From the IMG/VR virus record IMGVR_UViG_3300046468_001139: DNA of 64,000 nt. One strand, written 5' to 3'. Source of the DNA: a virus. This document shows, piece by piece, positions 3,193-47,020 of the stretch. The notes below the pieces were generated by a model, which worked only from the letters and a program-made list of their open reading frames with translations, was not told the origin of the DNA and made no database searches. How positions within the stretch are numbered: position 1 is the first letter of the stretch; every line of letters starts with the position of its first letter. A program made the position numbers and the translations under genes.

Positions 3193-6100
3193 TTATTTAG
3201 GTAACGCCACCTCTGTTGTTCTTAAGAACCTTGCAATGTCATTTTCTTGCCTATGTAGAGGAATTCCACTGTCAGTCCAAGGTTTACCAATGCGTCTAAC
3301 CACCACTATCTTGGTATTAATAGGTGGTGTTTCAGCTAATACAACAGTTGAAGTTGTTCCATCGACACTAAACTCCGCGGGCGACACAATATCTGCCTCT
3401 GGGCTGTCTAAATCAACAGTTGGATCATATGTATTTATTGCATTTTTACGCAGGCGCTTACCAGCGACAAATATTTCAAATTCATGTACTGAATTTGGAA
3501 TAAAGTCTACTACAATGCTACTAGTTGAGCCATCTGCTGTAAATGTTTGCTGAAGTGTTCTATCTTGATATGGAACAGTTTGCTTGTTACTCTGATCTAT
3601 TAGTTCAGTTCCTTTAGCATGTACTGTTGCAATACCAGTTCCTAGTGTACCTCTACGTAATTGTCTAAGTACTCCGCCTTCTTTTAAGTAATATTCAATA
3701 CGCTCTCCGTCAATAAACACAATACCTGGAATACTACGGTCTTTGTTTGGTTGAGGTAGTGTATCAGAGTTAGTAACTTTGATACTAGTATCGTAATAGT
3801 TTAAATCTTCAGCTAAGAAGTAACGTGATTCATCACCTAAACGTTTAAAGTGTGTTCTATTAAGCATATCTTTGAATTGACTAAACCCAAACTTAGGAAT
3901 AATAGTACTATTACTAAAGTGTATTACTTCCATTTCGTCATTTGCATCAATATCAACTGCTACTCTAATAGTTACTTTGTCTTCTAGTAATGCATATTCA
4001 ACATTTGGACTTAATAGTTCGCCATTTTTAGTTAACCATACATAACTTGTATCAATTGCAGGAGTTCTTAGTTTAATAAATCCGTTTGCTAATTGATGAT
4101 ATTCGTTATATTCTTTTGTATCTGTTGTAAGTGTAGCTCTTGCAACAACATCTAAATTAATTCTTTCAATTTTTGCAACATCATGATTACTAAATTGATA
4201 AACAGTTACCTTTTCACCATTTTGTGGAGCAGTTGTTAACTGTACTTGATTAGGTGTTTCATTCCAATAACCATTAGCATCAAACACACCAAAGTCATAC
4301 TCTCCATCACCTAGTAAGTAAACATCTAAAATGTCTCCGTTGTTACCAACACCAGCAAATAATTCAACACTTGAATTAAATCTATTCCAAATATAACTTG
4401 TTGATAATATTTGCTCTACGCCGTTTAAGAATACTTTAATTTTTTCTGCTGGTATCTGTGCAAGTCCAACTTGCCAATCACGCAGTTTGTATTCTCTAGT
4501 TGATGAAACTGTATACTGTTGATTGTATCCAGGTGTAAGTATTTTATTACCTACTTTAACAACTACGCTGTTTGCTAATGGGCGTTGTGTAAACGGTGCA
4601 TTAGCTAAATTAAATGTTTGTAATGATCCTGAACCTGTAAACTCATCAATTGATATCTGTGAGAACGACTTAGCCGCACTATCATAAATTACATACTGTA
4701 TAAGCTCTCCTGGAAGAGGAGCAATCGGTAGTCTAAGTAATACTTGACCTGCTGTTTCGTATGTTGAATCTGTTTCTGCAAGTACAGCATCAATTGGAGC
4801 ACCGTCTTTTGTAATAAACAAACTTAGTCCTTGTTTAAACTTAACTGATGTAACAAATACTGATGTTGATCCGTCACCTGTAAATGTGTCTGCATCAAGA
4901 ATGTTTTCACCGTTAGCTGACATTGTAATAATGTTAACACTTTGACCGTTTGCTATTGCAACGCTGTTATCTAATGTTAATGTTTTATCCTGATAATTTA
5001 CAGTAAACAAACTGTTATTACCTGAATCTAAAATTGTTCCGTTAGCTTTAACAAACACATCTTTGCTACTTGCTGGTACTCTATCAAGTTTAAATGTACG
5101 GCTTCCTGTGTAAATGTAGTTGTAATTATTAATTATACTTGAACCATCATTAATTCTATCGTATACTTTAATGTTTACACTATCAAGTAATTGTCCTGGA
5201 ACAAGTTCTTCAGGTCCTTTAGATGTTAACGGAGTTACAAACCCATCACCATCAACTACAATTTCTTCTGCACTAATACCTTTTGCAGTTGAGTACGCTA
5301 TGTCACCACCTTGTAACATTGTGTCATATGCGTCTGCATCTGGTAAGAAGCTACCATCACTTGTTGATTTTCTAATAACAATTACATCGTTACCTGCTGT
5401 TGGAATCTTATCATTGTCAATAACAAATGTATCTGTTGTACCATCACCTACTAGTGAATTCATTACTGCATTTGGATTACCTGGAACTGTTGATCCATCA
5501 TATTCAGGATCGTCAATTCTAATACCATTTTTATATACGTTATATGTTACGCCATTAACTAATGGAGCAGACAATGTTAATACTTGTGTACTTCCGTCTA
5601 GTTGGAAAATTTCATCTTCGTATGTTGCATCATATGAATCCCAAGTAGTTGTGTAATAAGGTTCGTTACCATATCCTGTACCTGTATTAAATGCAAAACT
5701 CTTAACTTGTACTCCACCGTAATCAACACCGTCCATTAACTGTGAAATATCGTTACCTAACTGTCCTGTTGAAGGATTGTAGAACAAGTTAATTCTATCT
5801 TGTGCTTGTAGCATTGATACATCTTTTTTGTATGTAACAACAATAACTGCATTGTTTGCCGGAGGATTATCAAATGTAATACGTCCTTTGTATCTTGTGT
5901 AAGACTTATCAGTATATTCTTCATTGCTAACTGAATAGTTACCTTGTAATTCTTCAATGCCGTTAACTGTAATAGTAACTTGGTTACGTCTTACGTCCAT
6001 TGGCCATTTAACATCAAAAAATGTTTTACTGTTATTACCTGCAAACGTTTGTGTTTCTGCTAATGAAGTAATTAAAAATGTTCCTGTTACACGGTCAAAC

Positions 6101-9100
6101 TTACTACGCAAGTGCATAGCTCTAATTTTACTATTACCTAGTTGTGCTGATGCTTTAGCAATTCTACTTTCGTTAACAGTTGACAAACTACCTTCAATTT
6201 CAATAGTTGGTGCTGACAAGTAACCTGAACCTGGATTTGTAACTTCAATGCTTACAACACTTCCGCCTGATCCTAATTTAGCAAGTCCTTTAGCACCTGT
6301 TCCGCCTCCGCCTACAAATTTAATAACAGGTATTTCAGTATAGCCTAAACCTTTATCACTAATATTACAACTAGCAACTTCAAAGCCTACATTGTCTAAC
6401 CAATGCTTGTTTGGATAAGTGTTTAATGTTGCATCTTGTCCGTAGATTAAATTGTCTTTAACTTTAAGTGATGCTGGTTCAATACGCTGTGTATCTTCGT
6501 TGTATTGTGGAGCAAAGTCAAAGTCGCTAATACTACTTGAAGTTAAATCTGTCTTAGTATAGTTACTTAGGTATTCTCTAATTTTTGTTTTGAAAGGTTT
6601 AGTTTCTTTAACAAATTCTTCGTAACTTGGTAAGCTATCATTTTGGAATGTAACTTTTTGCTGTAAATCACCAGCATTGTGTTTTGCTTTAATGAAACTA
6701 GTTTTAAATGCCCAATCAACAAACGGTTGCTCTGCAAACGCATATCTAATACTTGCTAGGAATAACTGATTGTATTCTACTTCTAAGCCATCAACAAATA
6801 TATCATCTCTAAGTGATTTTAAAATAATACGCAATTCGTTAGTTGGTTGATTATCGTAGAATGCTGTATCATAACTTAATCCGTCAAAGCCTACAAAGCT
6901 CTTAGTAAAGTTATACAGTTCTTCTTTAAATTCTATAGTTCCGTCTTGTCTACCAATAGTTCTATAGTTACTTGTGTAATCACTTGCTTCTTCATTACTA
7001 ATTTTTTCTAGTAACAACCAACCACCAGTACCGATGTTTTTAATTTTAATAATATCACCAATGGTGTCATTCAACGATGTTAGTAAGTAACTTTCATCAA
7101 TAGTAAAATCAATATCAGTAAATTTACTGTAACCAGCATCGTACCAATCAATGTAGTTCCACCAGTTGCTTACATCATATGCTTGAGTTGCTGTTCTTTG
7201 GTACTCAGCTAATACTGTGTTATATGAAAATATTGACCATTTACTGTTTACAGTTTCATCACTCTTAACAAGTACACTAAACAATCTTACTGATAAGTTT
7301 GTGTTTGGTGAATAGTTTTTACCTGGATTTCTAACTGTTACGCTACCAATACCACCTGCGGTATTAAGTGTTAATGTAACTTGTGCTTTTTCACCATCAC
7401 CAACTTGTTCAAACTCGTATGTTGGTACTGTGATATAGCCCGAACCTGGATTTGTAATATCAACTCTAACTAATTTTCCTTCTTCAAATACAGGAGTTAG
7501 TGTTGCTGGCTTAACCTTTGAAATATTAACAAAACTAAGTTCAGAATATGTATCAATTGCTACATCATATTTAGAACTAATAATATCTGGTTGTGGATCT
7601 GATGATAACAAATTAGTAAAGCTGTATTCATCTACAATTAATTCTTTAGCCAACACTCTATTAGTACGTTCAATTACTTGTTTAAGTGCTTCAGTACTAT
7701 TTTTAAACATTGACTGTCTAGGTCTATTAAGTACACCGTATTTCTGCTTAGGCGATAACGCTGGATCAGGAACTGGTCTATTATAAATGTCTACACCAAC
7801 TAAACTATCAATCCATTTAGCTTCTAAGTCTTTGTTAGGTTTACTCGTTGCTAATCCATCAGTAATAAGTTGATATTGATTATGTTGATTAATTTCTTGA
7901 TTAGGGATTGTCCAGTATCTAAAGTTAATTGCTTTTTTATCTTCTTCAACTAAACTACCACAGTTGTATAATCCAAATCTATCATTAGAGTAAACTGCAA
8001 CAAATTTATAACCTTGTCCTGCAGGATCATTAATTAATTGTGCAACATCGTATGCACTTGATCTTCTGTTTTCAAGTGTTGGAATAATTTTAGTATTTTT
8101 AACCCAATAGTAATATTTGTTATAGAAACTTGAACTTACACTATTATATAATCTTTTAGTTACAAATGTAGTAGTTCCGTATTTAGGTGTTCCACTAATA
8201 CCTCTTGCTAATCCATCTTCTGTATCAGCTAGTTCTAACCACTGTGTTGGTGTTAATGATGTTTCAACCCATTCATATACATCTATACTAGATCCAACCA
8301 TTTGTTGATTAAAGTTAGCTGTGTTATAAATGATATTGTTTTGATATGGTTCAATCCATTGTACTGTACTAATATCCCACCATAGTTTACCTACATGCTC
8401 GTTAGCCCAATAATTTTCTGTATCTACATTTACATTAGATTGATCAGTTTGTGTATAAGTTGCAGGATCAAACGGAGTTGTAAATGCTAATTCTTCTTCA
8501 GCCGGTCCAGCAATTTTTCCTTGAATAGGATCAATATAATCTAATTGTGTTGCTGTTCCGCTTCCGTCTTTACTGTAAACAAATACTCCTTTGAACTTAT
8601 CTAAGTCAACTTGTCTAGTTGGACTTCTATATGTTTTCCATGGAAGTTCGTTACGTTGACGTTTGTAATCTACAACTGTACCAATAAAATTATTACCTGT
8701 ATTAGATGCACTAAGCTCTGGCATTGAAACATATATGTGGTTGTTTGACGCATGGATAAATTCTCCAAAGCGTTCAACGTTGCTGTTATTAAATGCTAAT
8801 TTCTCTGCATATAATAAGTATCCACCAACATACTGGTAAATGAATACTTCACCACTGTCTAAGTTTTCTTTACTAAACTGTGTTAAGTTATTATCATATG
8901 TAGTTTCAACTGCTAAATCAGATTCTTTACTGTTAACGTATTGTGCCGTAACAAGTGTACTATCATCTAAGTACGTCTGTGGTTGCGGATCCATTGCGGC
9001 TGTATATCTATCAAAGGAAGTATTATCAACCAAGTTACCACCTTGTGATGATATCATTAGTTCGTTACCTGAGAAGTCAACTGTTTGACCAAAGCGTTCT

Positions 9101-12100: not shown

Positions 12101-15100
12101 GTAATTGATGTTGTTTGAATAGCAAGTACTCTATCATTAGATCTAATATACTTTAGAACGTCCCATTCAATACCCTTTTTACCAATCCAAACATAATCAC
12201 CAACGTTAAGTGCTGACGGTGATTCTGCTAATAAATCCTCATAGGTTGGTACTGATAATTTTACATCTTGCGGATTTACATATCCTGCTGTCGGTAAAAC
12301 ATTTTTTTGAACATCGTTAGTTGGAAACGGTTTATGATTATATCCTTGAGGTTTTAGATATGTTTCAAAAGGACGTATTCTATAAATTAAATCTGTTTCT
12401 TCACCTGTAACTGTGTCAACTAATTCAACAGGCTGTGGACTTAGTCTAAAGTTTGCTTCGTCAAGTGTATATTCAACTTCATCAAACGCTGTTGATGATC
12501 CATATTGACCTAATCTAAATCCCCATTCTTCATAAAAGTCTAAACTGTCTGCATCTGTGTTAGACAATGCATCAAACAATTTAGTTAAACTGTTTTTTGT
12601 ACCTTTATCTTGAATAAATCCTTGATAGAATTTATACTGACTTACATCATCATTAATAATGTTTTCTAAGTACTTACGCTTTTGATATCCAATTAAATGC
12701 TGTGCTAGTCTTTGCTGATCATTATCAAAGTTGTCTGTATCAAGATCATAAAAATCTCCAAACTGTTTTGCTTTATAATCTAAGTTTGCTTTCAATCCTG
12801 CTTCAGGACGAACTTCTAACTTTTCCCAGTCTGCATTATTAAATATATTTGTTCCAGGTATCTTTACCTTTGCAACATAATAAAATTCTTTATATTTAAC
12901 TGTGTCGCCAACTGCATAATCTTTCCATTGCTCCCAAACAGTAGTAGTAGCACTATCGTAAATAAATCCTGGAATATTAAATCCACCTGTCCAAGCATCA
13001 GTTCTATATCCCATGACTTTAAGTCTTGCTTGACGATAGCCTGGAGCTTGGTCGTAAATTACATCTTTGAATACTGTTGTATTATCAAGTATTACTACAT
13101 GTTCTTTTTGTACTAAAGGAATATTAACATTGTAAATACCATCAGCAGTATTTCTAGTTGATACTGTAAATTCATTATCATTATCTCTACCAACTCTTAC
13201 ATATTCTGGTATTAATTTCTTACCGTCTGCTTTTAATAAACTGTAGTCGTAAAATGTATCAAAAATATTGTCTGCTACATTTTTCTCTTTGTAAAACTTT
13301 AATTGGTTTGCACCCGGACTTAGTGTAATAACACTATTTTCTGCCCAACCTTGTGTTGTCCAGAATAAAAATTCTTTAGCACTTACTCTCCAGTTTTCTA
13401 CATCTAAAATCTTATCACTAAAGTTATTAAATGAAAATCCTTCACTTTCTAAATACTTGCTATAACCTAATAAAAAGTCAACCACTTGCTGTACTGTTCT
13501 AAACATTGTACCATATGCAAGTTCTGCTGGCTCTTTAATTAGTTCAGTATTAAACTCACGTCTAAAGAATGCACTACGGCCGCCTTTCATAGGAAGTTCA
13601 GGTAACTTTTGATATAATGACTGGTCAAAGTCTGATCCAGCTACGTGTTGAGCTTTAGCAACATAATATTCATTGCCAAATTGAATAATAGAACCTTCAG
13701 CGTATGTTTTATTCTCAGTCCATTTTACAAAATCTTCACTAATACCGCCTACTGTAACAATTGGATCATCTGCTTTTGGTGTTGGTGTAAAATACTTAAA
13801 GTACGGATTAACTTTATCGTATCCTCTAATAATAAATCCTTCAGCTTTCTTTTCAATAATTACACCACTGTACGAAACTAGTTCTGTAACAGAACTTGTG
13901 TTTAAGAAAATTTGATAATTTTCTTCTGGTACAAAAACATTGCCTTCATTGTAAGGAGTTCTTGAATCAAGTATTAATTTAAATTTACTCTTTTCAGTAA
14001 ATCCACCAAGTTTAATTCCTAACTTGTTGTCAACAGCTTTTATATTTGTTCTGTACTTTGTATAAACATCAGTATCTTTACTGTTTAAATAGTTTGCAAT
14101 TACGTTTATTAATCCACAAGTGTTTACTCTTGTTTCATCTGTTGAAGTATTTGGAAATACTAAATCTTCTAATCTTAAACGCTTGCCTGTTGGACTATAA
14201 ACAATAGTGCCTGCACTATCTCTAACAATTCTACTTCTATCCCAACCAAGACCACATACTCTACTTGGCTGATTTAACATTAAGGAAATTAATAATGCAA
14301 ATGGATATTCGCTACTTCTTCTCCAAGCAGTTTCTGTTGGTCCTTCGTCACCAAAGTTAAATGGATTTTTAGTACTACCTAATACAAATTCTTTTGCATA
14401 GTTAGCATCAACAGGACTTAATAAATTACCTGCATCATCAACCGGTATCCAATTAGTAAGACCTGGACGTTTGTAATGTTCTAAGTATTCTGCCGGAGCA
14501 CCTGGCTTTCTGCATATACCATCTTCAAGGTCTTGCCATAGCAACATGTTTTCACTTGTGTATGGTGCTTTACCATATTCTGTTTCCCACCATGTAGGCT
14601 TAACACTTAGTCCTAACATTTCCCATGGATGTGTATGTGGACGATCAGTATCAAATGCTTGTTTGTAAACTGCTCTCCAGTATCCTGGATTAGTAGTATT
14701 GTTTGCTCCTAGTGTTGAAGAATAGTTATACGTAAATGTATCTGATGCTTCATAGAAATCATAGTTTGTATAATCTGGATTTCCTACAATTGATAGCCAA
14801 TCAATAAATTCTGTAATCATTCCTTTATCAATAGCCCATTTAGGAATGCCTGTTTCTCTATTTGAGCCGCCAACAAAATCGTGTATATCAAATAGTGATG
14901 TGTTGTATGGAACTTTTAAGTTGTTATAAATTCTTTTTTCTAATTCAAGTAATAACTCATCTCTAAAGTCATTGTATGCTACAAAGGTAGATCCGTCATG
15001 TCCTCTAATAACAGTTTGGTCAACTCCGTAAGTGTTGTCAATAAACTTTTCAGGAACATATGCAGGATATAAACCTAACTTGGTAGGTGTTTCTGGAATA

Positions 15101-42627: not shown

Positions 42628-43260
42628 GTGTTTAATTTAACTGAGACATTGACATTCGACCAAGCAGGTATGGTTGTCGAGACTACTGAAAACAAGAATG
42701 GAGGCAAAGATCTTTATCTTAAAGGTATTTGTATCCAGGGCGGTGTAAAAAACGCAAACCAGCGAGTTTACCCTGTTACTGAGATAGGTAGAGCTGTCAA
42801 AACTCTCAACGATCAAATCACAGGAGGATATAGTGTTCTTGGAGAAGTTGATCACCCAGAAGGACTTAACATTAACTTAGACCGTGTAAGCCATATGATC
42901 ACAGATATGTGGATGGATGGACCAAACGGTTATGGCAAGTTAAAAGTATTACCGACGCCAATGGGACAACTAGTTCAAACAATGCTGGAAAGCGGAGTTA
43001 AACTAGGTGTTTCATCGCGTGGGTCAGGCAACGTAAGTGAAGACGGTGCCGGCGAAGTAAGTGACTACGAGATTATTACAGTTGATGTTGTAGCACAGCC
43101 AAGTGCTCCGGGTGCATACCCAACCCCAATATATGAGCATTTAATAAACGCCCGTGGGGGGTACAAGGCATTAGAATTAGCAAGAGAAGTCCAAGGCGAC
43201 GCGAAGGCACAAAAATATTTAAAAGAATCTTTGGTGAATATCATCAAGGGTCTAAGGTAA
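42628..43260 (+). CDS. gp21: Prohead protease
   Basis: GICIQG...NANQRVYP, GEVDHP, L.RVSH, GVSSRGSG, DVVAQPSAP.AYP; GTG start. Confidence 0.92.
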   Translation: MFNLTETLTFDQAGMVVETTENKNGGKDLYLKGICIQGGVKNANQRVYPVTEIGRAVKTLNDQITGGYSVLGEVDHPEGLNINLDRVSHMITDMWMDGPNGYGKLKVLPTPMGQLVQTMLESGVKLGVSSRGSGNVSEDGAGEVSDYEIITVDVVAQPSAPGAYPTPIYEHLINARGGYKALELAREVQGDAKAQKYLKESLVNIIKGLR

Positions 43261-44386: not shown

Positions 44387-45553
44387 ATGTCAGAACTACT
44401 AGAAAGTCGCTGGCAGGATACCAAAGTTGCACTTTTAGAAGGCCTTCAAGGCAATAAGAAAGCAACAATGGCAAGCACTCTTGAAAACACACGCAAGTGG
44501 TTGAATGAGACTGCTACAGCTGGTTCTACAAGCGCCGGTAATGTTGCAACTCTAAATAGAGTTATCCTACCAGTAATCAGACGTGTCATGCCAACTGTAA
44601 TCGCCAACGAATTAGTCGGTGTACAGCCTATGACAGGTCCAGTGGGTCAAATCCACACATTAAGAGTACGTTACTCAGATTCATCTGATGGTAACGAAGT
44701 AGGTGAAGAAGCACTTTCACCATTTAAGATCGCATCAGCTTACTCAGGTAACGCTACAGATGCAACACCAAAAGGATCTGCAACAGCGGCTCTTGAAGGT
44801 GCGGCTGGTAAGAGATTATCAATCCAGATCTTAAAGCAAACTGTCGAAGCAAAAACCAGAAAGCTATCAGCTAGATGGACTTTTGAAGCGGCTCAAGATG
44901 CTCAAGCACAGCAAGGTATCGATATTGAAGCAGAAATTATGGCGGCATTAGCCCAAGAAATTACTGCTGAGATTGATCAAGAAGTATTAGCTTCTTTACG
45001 TGCTTTAGCAGGATCTACAAACCAACAAGCATACGACCAGACTGCTGTAAGTGGTACTGCAACATTCGTAGGTGACGAACATGCGGCATTAGCTGTAATG
45101 ATCAACCGTGTTGCAAACACTATCGCTCAGCGTACTAGACGTGGTGCTGGTAACTACGCAGTGGTATCGCCACATGCATTAACTGTACTTCAGTCAGCAA
45201 CAACTTCAGCGTTCGCAAGAACAACTGAAGGTTCTTTCGAAGCTCCAACTAACACTAAAATGGTTGGTACTTTGAATAGTGCTATGAAAGTATATGTTGA
45301 TTCATATGCGGCTGATAACACAGCAGTACTAGTTGGTTACAAAGGATCTTCAGAGTCAGACGCACCAGCGTTTTACTGCCCATACATTCCATTAATGAGC
45401 AGTGGCGTAGTGTTAGACCCTGATAGCTTTGAGCCAGTAGTAAGCTTCATGACTAGATACGGATATGTTGAGTTATCAAACACAGCATCGTCTCTAGGTA
45501 ACGCGGCGGACTACTTAGGTACAGTTACTATCGCAGGTGTAACATTCTCTTAA
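44387..45553 (+). CDS. gp23: Major capsid protein
   Basis: LPVIRRVMP..IA.ELVGVQPMTGPVGQI, VEAKTRKLSARWT.EAAQD, EI.AEIDQE, FYCPYIPL, FMTRYG. Confidence 0.95.
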   Translation: MSELLESRWQDTKVALLEGLQGNKKATMASTLENTRKWLNETATAGSTSAGNVATLNRVILPVIRRVMPTVIANELVGVQPMTGPVGQIHTLRVRYSDSSDGNEVGEEALSPFKIASAYSGNATDATPKGSATAALEGAAGKRLSIQILKQTVEAKTRKLSARWTFEAAQDAQAQQGIDIEAEIMAALAQEITAEIDQEVLASLRALAGSTNQQAYDQTAVSGTATFVGDEHAALAVMINRVANTIAQRTRRGAGNYAVVSPHALTVLQSATTSAFARTTEGSFEAPTNTKMVGTLNSAMKVYVDSYAADNTAVLVGYKGSSESDAPAFYCPYIPLMSSGVVLDPDSFEPVVSFMTRYGYVELSNTASSLGNAADYLGTVTIAGVTFS

Positions 45554-45579
45554 GACATAGTCTTAAATAGAAGTACTAG

Positions 45580-45612
45580 AAAGGGCGGACTTAATTGTTC
45601 GCCCTTTTTTTA
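45580..45612 (+). terminator. Rho-independent terminator after the capsid gene
   Basis: AAAGGGCGGAC-TTAATT-GTTCGCCCTTT followed by a T-run. Confidence 0.85.
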
Positions 45613-45653: not shown

Positions 45654-45682
45654 TTGCTCTTTGTTAATAACAATGTTATATT
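45654..45682 (+). promoter_or_regulatory. Sigma70-type promoter with extended -10, driving a non-coding element
   Basis: TTGCTC (45654-59), 17 nt, TATATT (45677-82) preceded by TG. Confidence 0.55.
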
Positions 45683-45688
45683 ATTAAT

Positions 45689-45902
45689 ATAGCAACAAAA
45701 GAGTAATTAGCTTTTGTTTATAGTGCAAGGAAGAGGCCTTTACCAGAAGGGTCGAACTTGACTAGCCAGGGGTGGTACCCAGGTGCTGTAGTAGAAATAC
45801 GCAGTATCACATCGCAGTCACTAGCGGGGTTAGGTTGTACGTATTAGAATGGTATTCGGGTACGTGCTTGTAGGTGTAACCAAGTCCTACCTATTTTGCT
45901 AT
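45689..45902 (+). ncRNA. Putative ~214-nt structured RNA of unknown family
   Basis: Terminal helix ATAGCAA/TTGCTAT starting at the predicted +1; internal helices with G-U pairs and a GAAA tetraloop; GC-richer than flanks; no ORF. Confidence 0.65.
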
Positions 45903-45990
45903 ACTTAAATTTAGACTCGCAAAAAGACCTATTATAAGCACCTTTTTCGCCGACCGGCTAAATACATATAACAACTTCTAAACAATGACA

Positions 45991-46013
45991 AACTGCTTTA
46001 TGCAGTTTTTTTT
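45991..46013 (+). terminator. Terminator-like hairpin
   Basis: AACTGC-TTTAT-GCAGTT followed by a T-run. Confidence 0.5.
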
Positions 46014-46041
46014 GTGACTAAACGTTCTGCTAAATATTAGT

Positions 46042-46449
46042 ATGAAGGACGAGTACACAACAGTCTTTTACGACCTTGTCCAAGAGACACAGTCCACTAC
46101 AGGATACGAACTTCCAGTAGAAGTTGAAGCATATGTAGTAATGCTTCTTGCATCCAAAATAGATAAACCAAATATTATTCCCGTTGAAAGTTTTGCACAA
46201 TCTTACCTTGCACTAAAACAACCTTATAGATTAACAGCTAAAGAATTAGGTGACACATGCCTGTTTGTAACAAGCGTATTCCCCTCTTACGGACGTCGAT
46301 ACGGTTTAGACAAGCATTACTATAGCAACATAGGAAAGAACAGCTACAGCCTAGTTAAAACAAGTTTAAACGGCCAACTGTTCGAAGTACTAGAAACACA
46401 ATTTGATTTTGTAAGAGATTTCATTTCATTAACAGTACGAATTGATTAA
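46042..46449 (+). CDS. Hypothetical protein
   Basis: 135 aa, YVVMLLA...KELGDTCLFVTSVFP; TAAATA 5 nt upstream. Confidence 0.6.
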   Translation: MKDEYTTVFYDLVQETQSTTGYELPVEVEAYVVMLLASKIDKPNIIPVESFAQSYLALKQPYRLTAKELGDTCLFVTSVFPSYGRRYGLDKHYYSNIGKNSYSLVKTSLNGQLFEVLETQFDFVRDFISLTVRID

Positions 46450-46558
46450 ACAGATAAATACTTGTGTCAAATAGTGTGCCGCAAGGCGGACTTATGCAGA
46501 ATACCAACTGCGTAGCTCATAGAACGGGCATTGGACTACTTTTTATAGGAGAAAACAA

Positions 46559-47020
46559 ATGGGAAGACCAATTAATAAAAGATATTTCGGAGTAGAGGGT
46601 GTAGGCCCAACTGCTGGCGGAACAGAGATCAAAGTAAACTTTCATAATGGCACAGCCGTTAAAGAAGGTTATATTGTTAAACAACTAGGTTCAAAAAAAT
46701 TCCGTGTTGAAGAAATTGAAACAGCAGGAACTTTTGATTGTACACTAACAACTGGCGTATTACCAGCGGCTTTAACAGCTGGCCAAATGTCAATTTCAGT
46801 ACAAGGTGCAGACTCAGAAACTTATGGCGTAAGTAAAATTACAAACCGTATGGTTAAAGTAGCTCAGCCAAGTGCAACTGGATCTAACGCACTAGACGGC
46901 GAAAGCCTTAAGTGGGCGTTAACTGGTGCCGCGGCATCTGGTACAGTTAGAATGGAAGAAGCTGGTGATGATAACACATTAACTGGTACAGACGACGACG
47001 ATCTAACAGAAGACGCATAA
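46559..47020 (+). CDS. Virion structural protein (possible capsid decoration)
   Basis: Own late promoter (46455-60), strong AGGAG SD and terminator; MGRPINKRYFG start; close to the capsid gene. Confidence 0.5.
   Translation: MGRPINKRYFGVEGVGPTAGGTEIKVNFHNGTAVKEGYIVKQLGSKKFRVEEIETAGTFDCTLTTGVLPAALTAGQMSISVQGADSETYGVSKITNRMVKVAQPSATGSNALDGESLKWALTGAAASGTVRMEEAGDDNTLTGTDDDDLTEDA

Follow-up and report, generated by a model that had tools for sequence, protein, structure and literature searches.

Does the interval behind the major capsid gene of this virus encode an RNA that is itself a product, and to which kind of RNA would it belong? The window (the whole stretch of 64,000 nt of viral DNA analysed here, from IMG/VR record IMGVR_UViG_3300046468_001139) had been described in an earlier note as carrying, behind the capsid terminator, a stand-alone structured RNA gene of no known kind. 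When the locus was re-read, promoter, terminal helix and internal helices were all found at the positions given for them, and the gp23 terminator proved to be real. The unit and its surroundings comprise:

42628-43260, prohead protease, a T4-type head gene
44387-45553, gp23 major capsid protein (Pfam PF07068, 9.8e-99)
45578-45611, + strand, gp23 terminator, a 13-bp hairpin followed by T7 (-19.9 kcal/mol, z -6.13)
45654-45682, + strand, sigma-70-type promoter with -35 TTGCTC (45654-59), 17-nt spacer and extended -10 TGT-TATATT (45674-82)
45688-45903, + strand, structured core of a manA-family RNA, 216 nt, helices P0-P9
45904-45989, + strand, spacer of about 86 nt between RNA core and terminator, common only to the window, L030 and L057
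45990-46016, + strand, intrinsic terminator, AAACTGC-TTTAT-GCAGTTT followed by T8 (-8.1 kcal/mol)
46042-46449, + strand, next gene, outside the RNA unit, 135 aa (MKDEYTT...), assigned to no Pfam or PHROG family

A divergent manA RNA with an additional closing helix

Positions 45688-45903 of the + strand hold a folded, multi-helix non-coding RNA of about 216 nt. Between the arms of the terminal helix the + strand folds with -66.7 kcal/mol (z -2.37); the minus strand yields no conspicuous fold (z -0.63), and as to coding potential the RNA stretch contains only ORFs of 30-33 aa. The helices, whose numbering follows the order in the Rfam manA model and is our own assignment, are all on the + strand:

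P0 (terminal helix), 45688-95/45896-903, TATAGCAA paired with TTGCTATA, all 8 pairs with compensatory changes
P1, 45696-701/45711-16
P2, 45720-23/45891-94
P3, 45726-29/45757-60, with inner stem 45735-41/45747-53
P4, 45762-67/45828-33
P5, 45769-71/45778-80
P6, 45782-88/45802-08, with a GAAA loop of GNRA type at 45794-97
P7, 45812-15/45824-27
P8, 45837-43/45861-67
P9, 45870-74/45886-90

In a permissive Rfam scan manA (RF01745) aligned to 45696-45900 over model positions 1-192 of 192 with 45.0 bits (E 2.3e-10), below the curated gathering score of 55.2, and the scan of the window at gathering scores lists no Rfam family, manA included, for this stretch. The nearest IMG/VR record reached the same manA score as the window. 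Among 27 scanned homologue contigs three met the gathering cut-off (L047 with 57, L013 with 56.4 and L012 with 55.9 bits) and 24 stayed below it. BLASTN returned one homologue from an isolate, Pelagibacter phage Mosig EXVC030M (MT647606.1, 108164-108371; 72.8% identity, E 8e-24), whose element scores 64 bits for manA and sits directly before a rubrerythrin gene. The window RNA was filed as a divergent manA subtype because it is linked to the family through those homologues that reach the cut-off; judged by sequence and predicted fold it is a divergent manA-family member and not a new RNA. The earlier view of an RNA of no known kind thus gives way to a family that is already catalogued. A match to a characterised family, which the earlier note had named as the result that would speak against it, was obtained in part: the family is RF01745, the member is divergent and its score is sub-threshold.

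No other Rfam family overlapped the core at 45688-45903 in the permissive scan, and ARAGORN found no tRNA or tmRNA in the window; the RNA was rightly said to have no tRNA, tmRNA or RNase P identity, as neither ARAGORN nor Rfam gave such a match. Rfam hits below threshold in the vicinity, MicC and csRNA among them, only picked up the gp23 terminator and were set aside.

Homologues were collected with an exact 21-base pattern taken from the two most conserved stretches, which matched contigs in IMG/VR (119 or more) and in metagenomes (120 or more). A covariance model, R1, was built from 80 distinct sequences and comprises 228 positions and 67 pairs, with the Rfam-type helices and the terminal helix. 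It found exactly one copy per contig in 121 related viral contigs and one copy in the window, where the RNA scored 239 bits. Over 79 distinct rows, which are related to one another and were fitted to the R1 model itself, standard pairs filled 93.6% of the cells, compared with 34.5-46.9% when the 3' partners were slid. Changes on both sides were present in 54 of the 67 pairs, a count that does not represent independent events since the set stems from an exact pattern and its members are kin; the 21 pattern bases are invariant by construction. None of 500 shuffles reached any of the five measures. Compensatory changes among homologues, which had been proposed as a check, are thus present and back the multi-junction structure of the RNA. 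Covariation occurred in every helix of the alignment except the outer stem of P3, which is invariant. For P0 the compensatory versions include AUAAGCAA/UUUGCUUAU and AUAUGCAA/UUCGCAUAU, and further AUAAGUAG/UUUACUUAU and UAAUAGCA/UUUCUAUUA.

A pseudoknot between GGTTA and TAACC, suggested previously, was not borne out: these segments pair in only 55.9% of the cells of the homologue alignment, and GGTTA lies in the 3' strand of P4, a competing helix with 98.9% of its cells paired. The alternative of GGUU in the P4-P8 junction with AACC in L9 pairs in 75.5% of the cells with hardly any covariation and was likewise rejected.

Comparison with catalogued manA places the differences outside the core. 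Both have the same helix order (P1, closing P2, P3, the P4 domain with P5, P6 and P7, then P8 and P9), the AGUG junction, a GGUGGU-type L5, an ACC-type L7, a GNRA L6 and UUG before P9, and both occur in a marine T4-like phage setting with a sigma-70 promoter directly upstream, as in Prochlorococcus phage P-SSM2. The manA RNA of P-SSM2 (142837-143034) scores 181.6 bits with Rfam and only 32.6 bits with R1. Unlike it, the subgroup adds P0, half of whose positions are unpaired in P-SSM2, and about half of the subgroup loci have an intrinsic terminator after the RNA, in contrast to the leader-type P-SSM2 element. The P2-P3 junction reads CAAGGAAGA in the subgroup and CUGAAUAAACUU in catalogued manA, and the P1 loop of the subgroup is larger and palindromic. 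The core is common to subgroup and catalogued manA, and the differences are peripheral. What is new is an architecture within a known family, free-standing, closed by P0 and with a palindromic P1 loop. The Rfam threshold misses most of the subgroup, so that these RNAs are unannotated in marine phage genomes, and no paper found in our search connects manA with pelagiphages or describes it as a stand-alone gene. The subtype is common in uncultured marine T4-like and giant phages.

At 4659-6333 and 12370-12595, contig L083 holds the most divergent copy found (81.6 bits with R1), with a P1 loop that is not palindromic, and an array of at least seven tRNA genes. In a collection of whole-genome contigs the pattern matched ten times and R1 fitted only two contigs, L134 and L136 (153 kb and 335 kb), which belong to one Neomarinimicrobiota MAG and carry identical copies of the manA-like RNA; these contigs may be misbinned giant-phage DNA. 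The other eight matches are near the chance level, which we estimate at about six for a 21-base pattern, and were discarded.

Promoter, terminator and the two layouts of the locus

In the window the 5' strand of P0 (TATAGCAA) begins five bases past the -10 element, and from this layout transcription is predicted to start near A45689. A corresponding near-consensus promoter (TTGNNN, 16-17 nt, TAnnnT, ending 4-8 nt before P0) was present in 72 of the 79 distinct loci. Its -35 element is TTGACA or TTGACT in 58 loci, its -10 element TATATT in 38 and TATAAT in 30, and the extended -10 TG occurs in 68. The -10 element ends 5-6 nt before P0 in 67 loci, so that transcription is predicted to begin at base one or two of P0. 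Among the loci the window shows the weakest -35 type, yet extended -10 and spacing are kept. A consensus promoter scanner misses this promoter because it demands 4/6 matches to the -35 element and the window has 3/6; the -35/17/extended -10 promoter reported earlier is confirmed through conservation and not through the scanner. The same conserved layout upholds the description of a stand-alone RNA with a host-type promoter, the start of which coincides with the terminal helix.

At the 3' side the earlier note had let the RNA end at 45903. The first terminator lies at 45990-46016, and this is the probable 3' end of the primary transcript of the window, so that the transcript probably ends there and not at 45903. 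In the 86-nt spacer in between (45904-45989) no convincing fold and no clear ORF were found. The terminator of the window is weaker than those of its relatives, and with the poor -35 element TTGCTC and a weak terminator 86 nt away, transcription may run on into ORF 46042. Behind the RNA, 38 of the 79 loci have a terminator consisting of a GC-rich hairpin and a T-run, in 23 different hairpin sequences. It starts 1-9 nt after P0 in 35 of these 38, and the hairpins do not overlap the conserved RNA.

The remaining 41 loci, mostly on pelagiphage-like contigs, have no terminator. In 30 of them a gp32 gene starts 59-98 nt downstream, and in P-SSM2, where the RNA starts 7 nt after TTGACA-16-TATAAT, purL follows 15 nt past the RNA. 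With gp32 or purL close behind, the same RNA evidently also occurs as a 5' leader. Taken together, the manA family looks like an early-promoter module with two layouts, a terminated free RNA or an RNA with a gene directly behind it, and the window is of the terminated kind. Among the gp32-linked loci (L025, L049, L012 and about 27 others), most have a late promoter word of T4 type, TATAAATA, overlapping P0 on its 3' strand; the RNA would then be the leader of early gp32 transcripts, while late ones would begin just past it and lack it. As a late-promoter word CTAAATA was not enriched in the window (10 found, 20 expected).

A termination riboswitch, too, has the succession of promoter, structured RNA, terminator and gene. 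On this reading the RNA would act in cis: by sensing a metabolite it would decide whether transcription passes the terminator at 45990-46016, or would set translation, and so govern ORF 46042-46449. manA (Rfam update: PMC7779021) was described in 2010 from marine and cyanophage sequences, was located in 5' UTRs and was rated a likely riboswitch (Weinberg et al. 2010, PMC2864571), a reading that later papers repeated without experimental test. The highly conserved junction nucleotides also suit a riboswitch, as do Mosig, group B and P-SSM2, in which a gene follows after 13-98 nt with no terminator in between. manA is not known to bind a ligand, and manA RNAs fold and assemble without added ligand (preprint 10.64898/2026.07.01.735769). 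In the window the RNA does not lie directly in the 5' UTR of a gene, as a terminator and 138 nt precede ORF 46042, and the label 'cis-regulatory' is therefore unfit for the subgroup RNA here. Across loci, the 23 terminator sequences begin after the closed P0, P0 closes the fold without any downstream sequence, and no conserved segment able to pair the RNA with the terminator, as anti-terminator or expression platform, is shared. The genes behind the RNA are functionally unrelated: at least nine unrelated ones were counted, including gp32, Csp (cold-shock) and a radical-SAM/SPASM protein, besides redoxin, rubrerythrin, a cytidylyltransferase/mannose-6-phosphate-isomerase protein and a freshwater-2 RNA with an MGRPLNKR protein. 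In several of these downstream units (freshwater-2/MGRPLNKR, gp32 and others) the gene is preceded, past the RNA, by its own late-promoter-like motif (T)ATAAATA. Neither a shared-sequence expression platform nor a coherent set of downstream genes, which are generic riboswitch criteria, was thus found across the 79 loci. Unrelated downstream genes and the lack of a conserved link between terminator and fold argue against a termination riboswitch, which we consider unlikely. P0, the promoter and a separate, variable terminator fit a self-contained early RNA gene better.

Could the fold instead be a protective or insulating 5' module, in which a stable structure with a paired 5' end shields or marks early RNAs and the terminated copies are by-products? 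The RNA does always begin at the predicted +1 of an early-type promoter, in leader and terminated layouts alike, and its 5' end is base-paired in P0. At 38 of the 79 loci, though, there is no downstream message in need of protection, and a simple hairpin would suffice for the purpose, whereas conservation extends to nine helices and to specific loops that covary. We give this explanation little credence. Own promoter, 5'-3' closing helix and a terminator in about half of the loci argue for the RNA as the actual product.

RNA libraries of three studies contained contigs that match the RNA without a difference (for example 45734-45897, 45736-45928 and 45812-45962), and some library contigs run on into the promoter or terminator flanks of relatives. 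As contigs, these data carry no starts, ends or strand and may include DNA carry-over; they hint that the RNA is expressed. That X9 and X10 among the RNA-library data do not cover 45915-46447 has, for contigs, no evidential weight. Joints indicating circular RNA forms were not seen among the library contigs.

Covarying loops and a proposed assembly of RNA copies

Four loop elements of the window RNA are candidates for loop-loop contacts:

45704-45709, + strand, P1-loop self-complementary hexamer UAAUUA, a candidate two-fold homotypic kissing contact
45741-45745, + strand, L3 loop UACCA, complementary to UGGUA at 45850-45854 in L8
45772-45777, + strand, L5 loop GUGGUA, complementary to L7
45816-45823, + strand, L7 loop AGUCACUA, GUGGU/GUCAC with L5, 5 pairs of which 2 are G-U

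Among homologues the best L5-L7 duplex had a mean of 4.25 bp against 3.68 +/- 0.15-0.16 in shuffled pairings (28 loop-pair classes; reached in 0/2000 and 0/500), and compensatory versions include UUGU/ACAG, UUGC/GCAG, UUAU/AUAG, UGGUA/UACCG and UAGU/ACUA. L3-L8 reached 4.0 against 3.8 in shuffles (2/500); UACCA/UGGUA is kept in most group-A sequences, and one compensatory variant, UACCU/AGGUA, was found. L8-L9 reached 4.56 against 4.05 (0/500), with up to 7 bp (AUGGAAU/AUUCCAU) in group B. Other combinations among L1, L3, L5, L6, L7 and L9 gave no excess complementarity, and L6-L8 was marginal (2/500). The P1 hairpin behaves differently in that it is complementary to itself: 22 of the 30 distinct P1 hairpins contain a palindrome of at least 6 nt, against a mean of 6 and a maximum of 16 in shuffles, and the hexamer occurs in five versions when metagenome loci are included (UAAUUA, UUAUAA, UAGCUA, UGAUCA and UUGCAA). 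Each switch between hexamers needs two symmetric changes, as would be expected if the loop pairs with the same loop of a second molecule. The covariation of L5-L7 and of L8-L3/L9, read from aligned sequences, is compatible with contacts within one molecule as well as between molecules.

For manA RNAs, kissing-loop homo-oligomers have been described by cryo-EM, comprising decamers and a 60-mer cage, in which L5-L7', L8-L9' and L3-L8' kissing loops and the L6 GNRA loop form the contacts between monomers (preprint 10.64898/2026.07.01.735769). Five other manA constructs gave pentamer-based homo-oligomers, in vitro only and at high RNA concentration (same preprint). If our loop numbers correspond to the labels used there, as we infer, the L5/L7 and L8/L3-L9 matches together with the palindromic P1 loop fit these kissing-loop homo-oligomers. 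The P1-loop palindrome itself finds no mention in the text of the preprint. In nature, the loops that join manA cages in the cryo-EM structures covary, and the P1 loop stays self-complementary in five versions.

In ROOL, GOLLD and OLE, kissing loops join ornate free-standing RNAs into symmetric assemblies. These RNAs resemble the window RNA in being free-standing and phage- or prophage-associated, and by analogy the window RNA probably works alike; they differ from it in that none has an Rfam match in the window and in size, several hundred nucleotides against 216 nt. The introduction of the preprint presents them as large bacterial or phage ncRNAs forming RNA-only multimers or cages (preprint 10.64898/2026.07.01.735769).

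We hold with moderate confidence that this divergent manA subtype is an early RNA gene of its own, most likely acting as an RNA-RNA assembly. According to this model, host sigma-70 polymerase would start at about A45689, in the first bases of the closing helix, and P0 would hold the two ends of the fold together. Termination would occur at 45990-46016, in most relatives 1-9 nt after P0, although the exact ends given here are those expected from promoter and terminator. What results would be a compact RNA of nine helices, free and produced early in infection, with L5/L7, L8/L3 (or L8/L9) and the P1 loop positioned to join copies into closed homo-oligomers. That the loop contacts are intermolecular is presumed by analogy with the manA structures, and in infection such an RNA might serve as scaffold, container or decoy. 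A more specific version, in which infected cells contain closed RNA-only rings or icosahedral-like cages built of pentamers through L5-L7' and L8-L3'/L9' contacts with two-fold joints at the P1 loops, is tentative and on the doubtful side. Should it hold, the loop covariation would be the first evolutionary evidence for the cage as a selected, functional state and not a test-tube effect, for instance as a container or decoy that is produced early.

That the RNA is a decoy or sponge capturing a protein of host or phage, with the loops as binding sites and the palindromic P1 loop as the site of a dimeric protein, appears improbable: a stand-alone, predicted early RNA with a closed 5'-3' helix does resemble many stable protein-binding RNAs, and palindromes also suit dimeric binders, but no partner gene co-occurs, the neighbours differ between loci, and loop changes preserve RNA-RNA complementarity, G-U pairs included, instead of a fixed sequence. 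None of the results supported the ribozyme, protein-sponge or anti-defence-decoy roles that had been put forward for this RNA. manA has counted as an orphan riboswitch candidate since 2010; in the large natural subgroup described here the RNA comes with an early promoter and a closing helix of its own. Existence and relevance of RNA cages in vivo are directly testable in the culturable Pelagibacter phage Mosig.

Neighbouring genes and RNAs

By its gp23, the window is nearest to giant phages (66-72% identity; Sinorhizobium phage Phosso 71.6%, Vibrio phage 2.275.O 68.7%, PA5oct 66.8%, and also GAP32), not to cyanophages or Mosig. A homologue of the gene at 46042-46449 stands behind the RNA in L031 as well, where the terminator starts 5 nt past the RNA. 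Among the scanned contigs without a terminator behind the RNA, four carry alphaproteobacterial (permuted) tmRNA genes, at L022 (7476-7740), L058 (525-802), L047 (6276-6575) and L067 (5983-6247); their presence in gp32-linked or Mosig-like contigs fits SAR11-type hosts for that subgroup.

Two further RNAs adjoin the manA-like RNA on the same contigs, freshwater-2 (RF02980) and glnA (RF01739, the glutamine riboswitch); their folds are unrelated to it, and both sit directly before genes in a leader-like manner. No glnA RNA reached threshold in the window. In several related contigs glnA lies about 130-300 nt upstream of the manA-like RNA (L045 9985-10032, L096 2909-2956, L097 2182-2230, L080 230-279, L046 8651-8698 and L041 2623-2669), so that glnA, manA-like RNA and freshwater-2 form a recurring three-RNA island in relatives. 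The freshwater-2 RNA of the window (46475-46561, + strand, 69.2 bits against a cut-off of 49.9) runs up to the beginning of ORF 46559-47020 (153 aa, MGRPINKR..., without a Pfam family). This pair of freshwater-2 and gene stands, in many relatives, directly behind the terminator of the manA-like RNA, preceded by GATAAATA.
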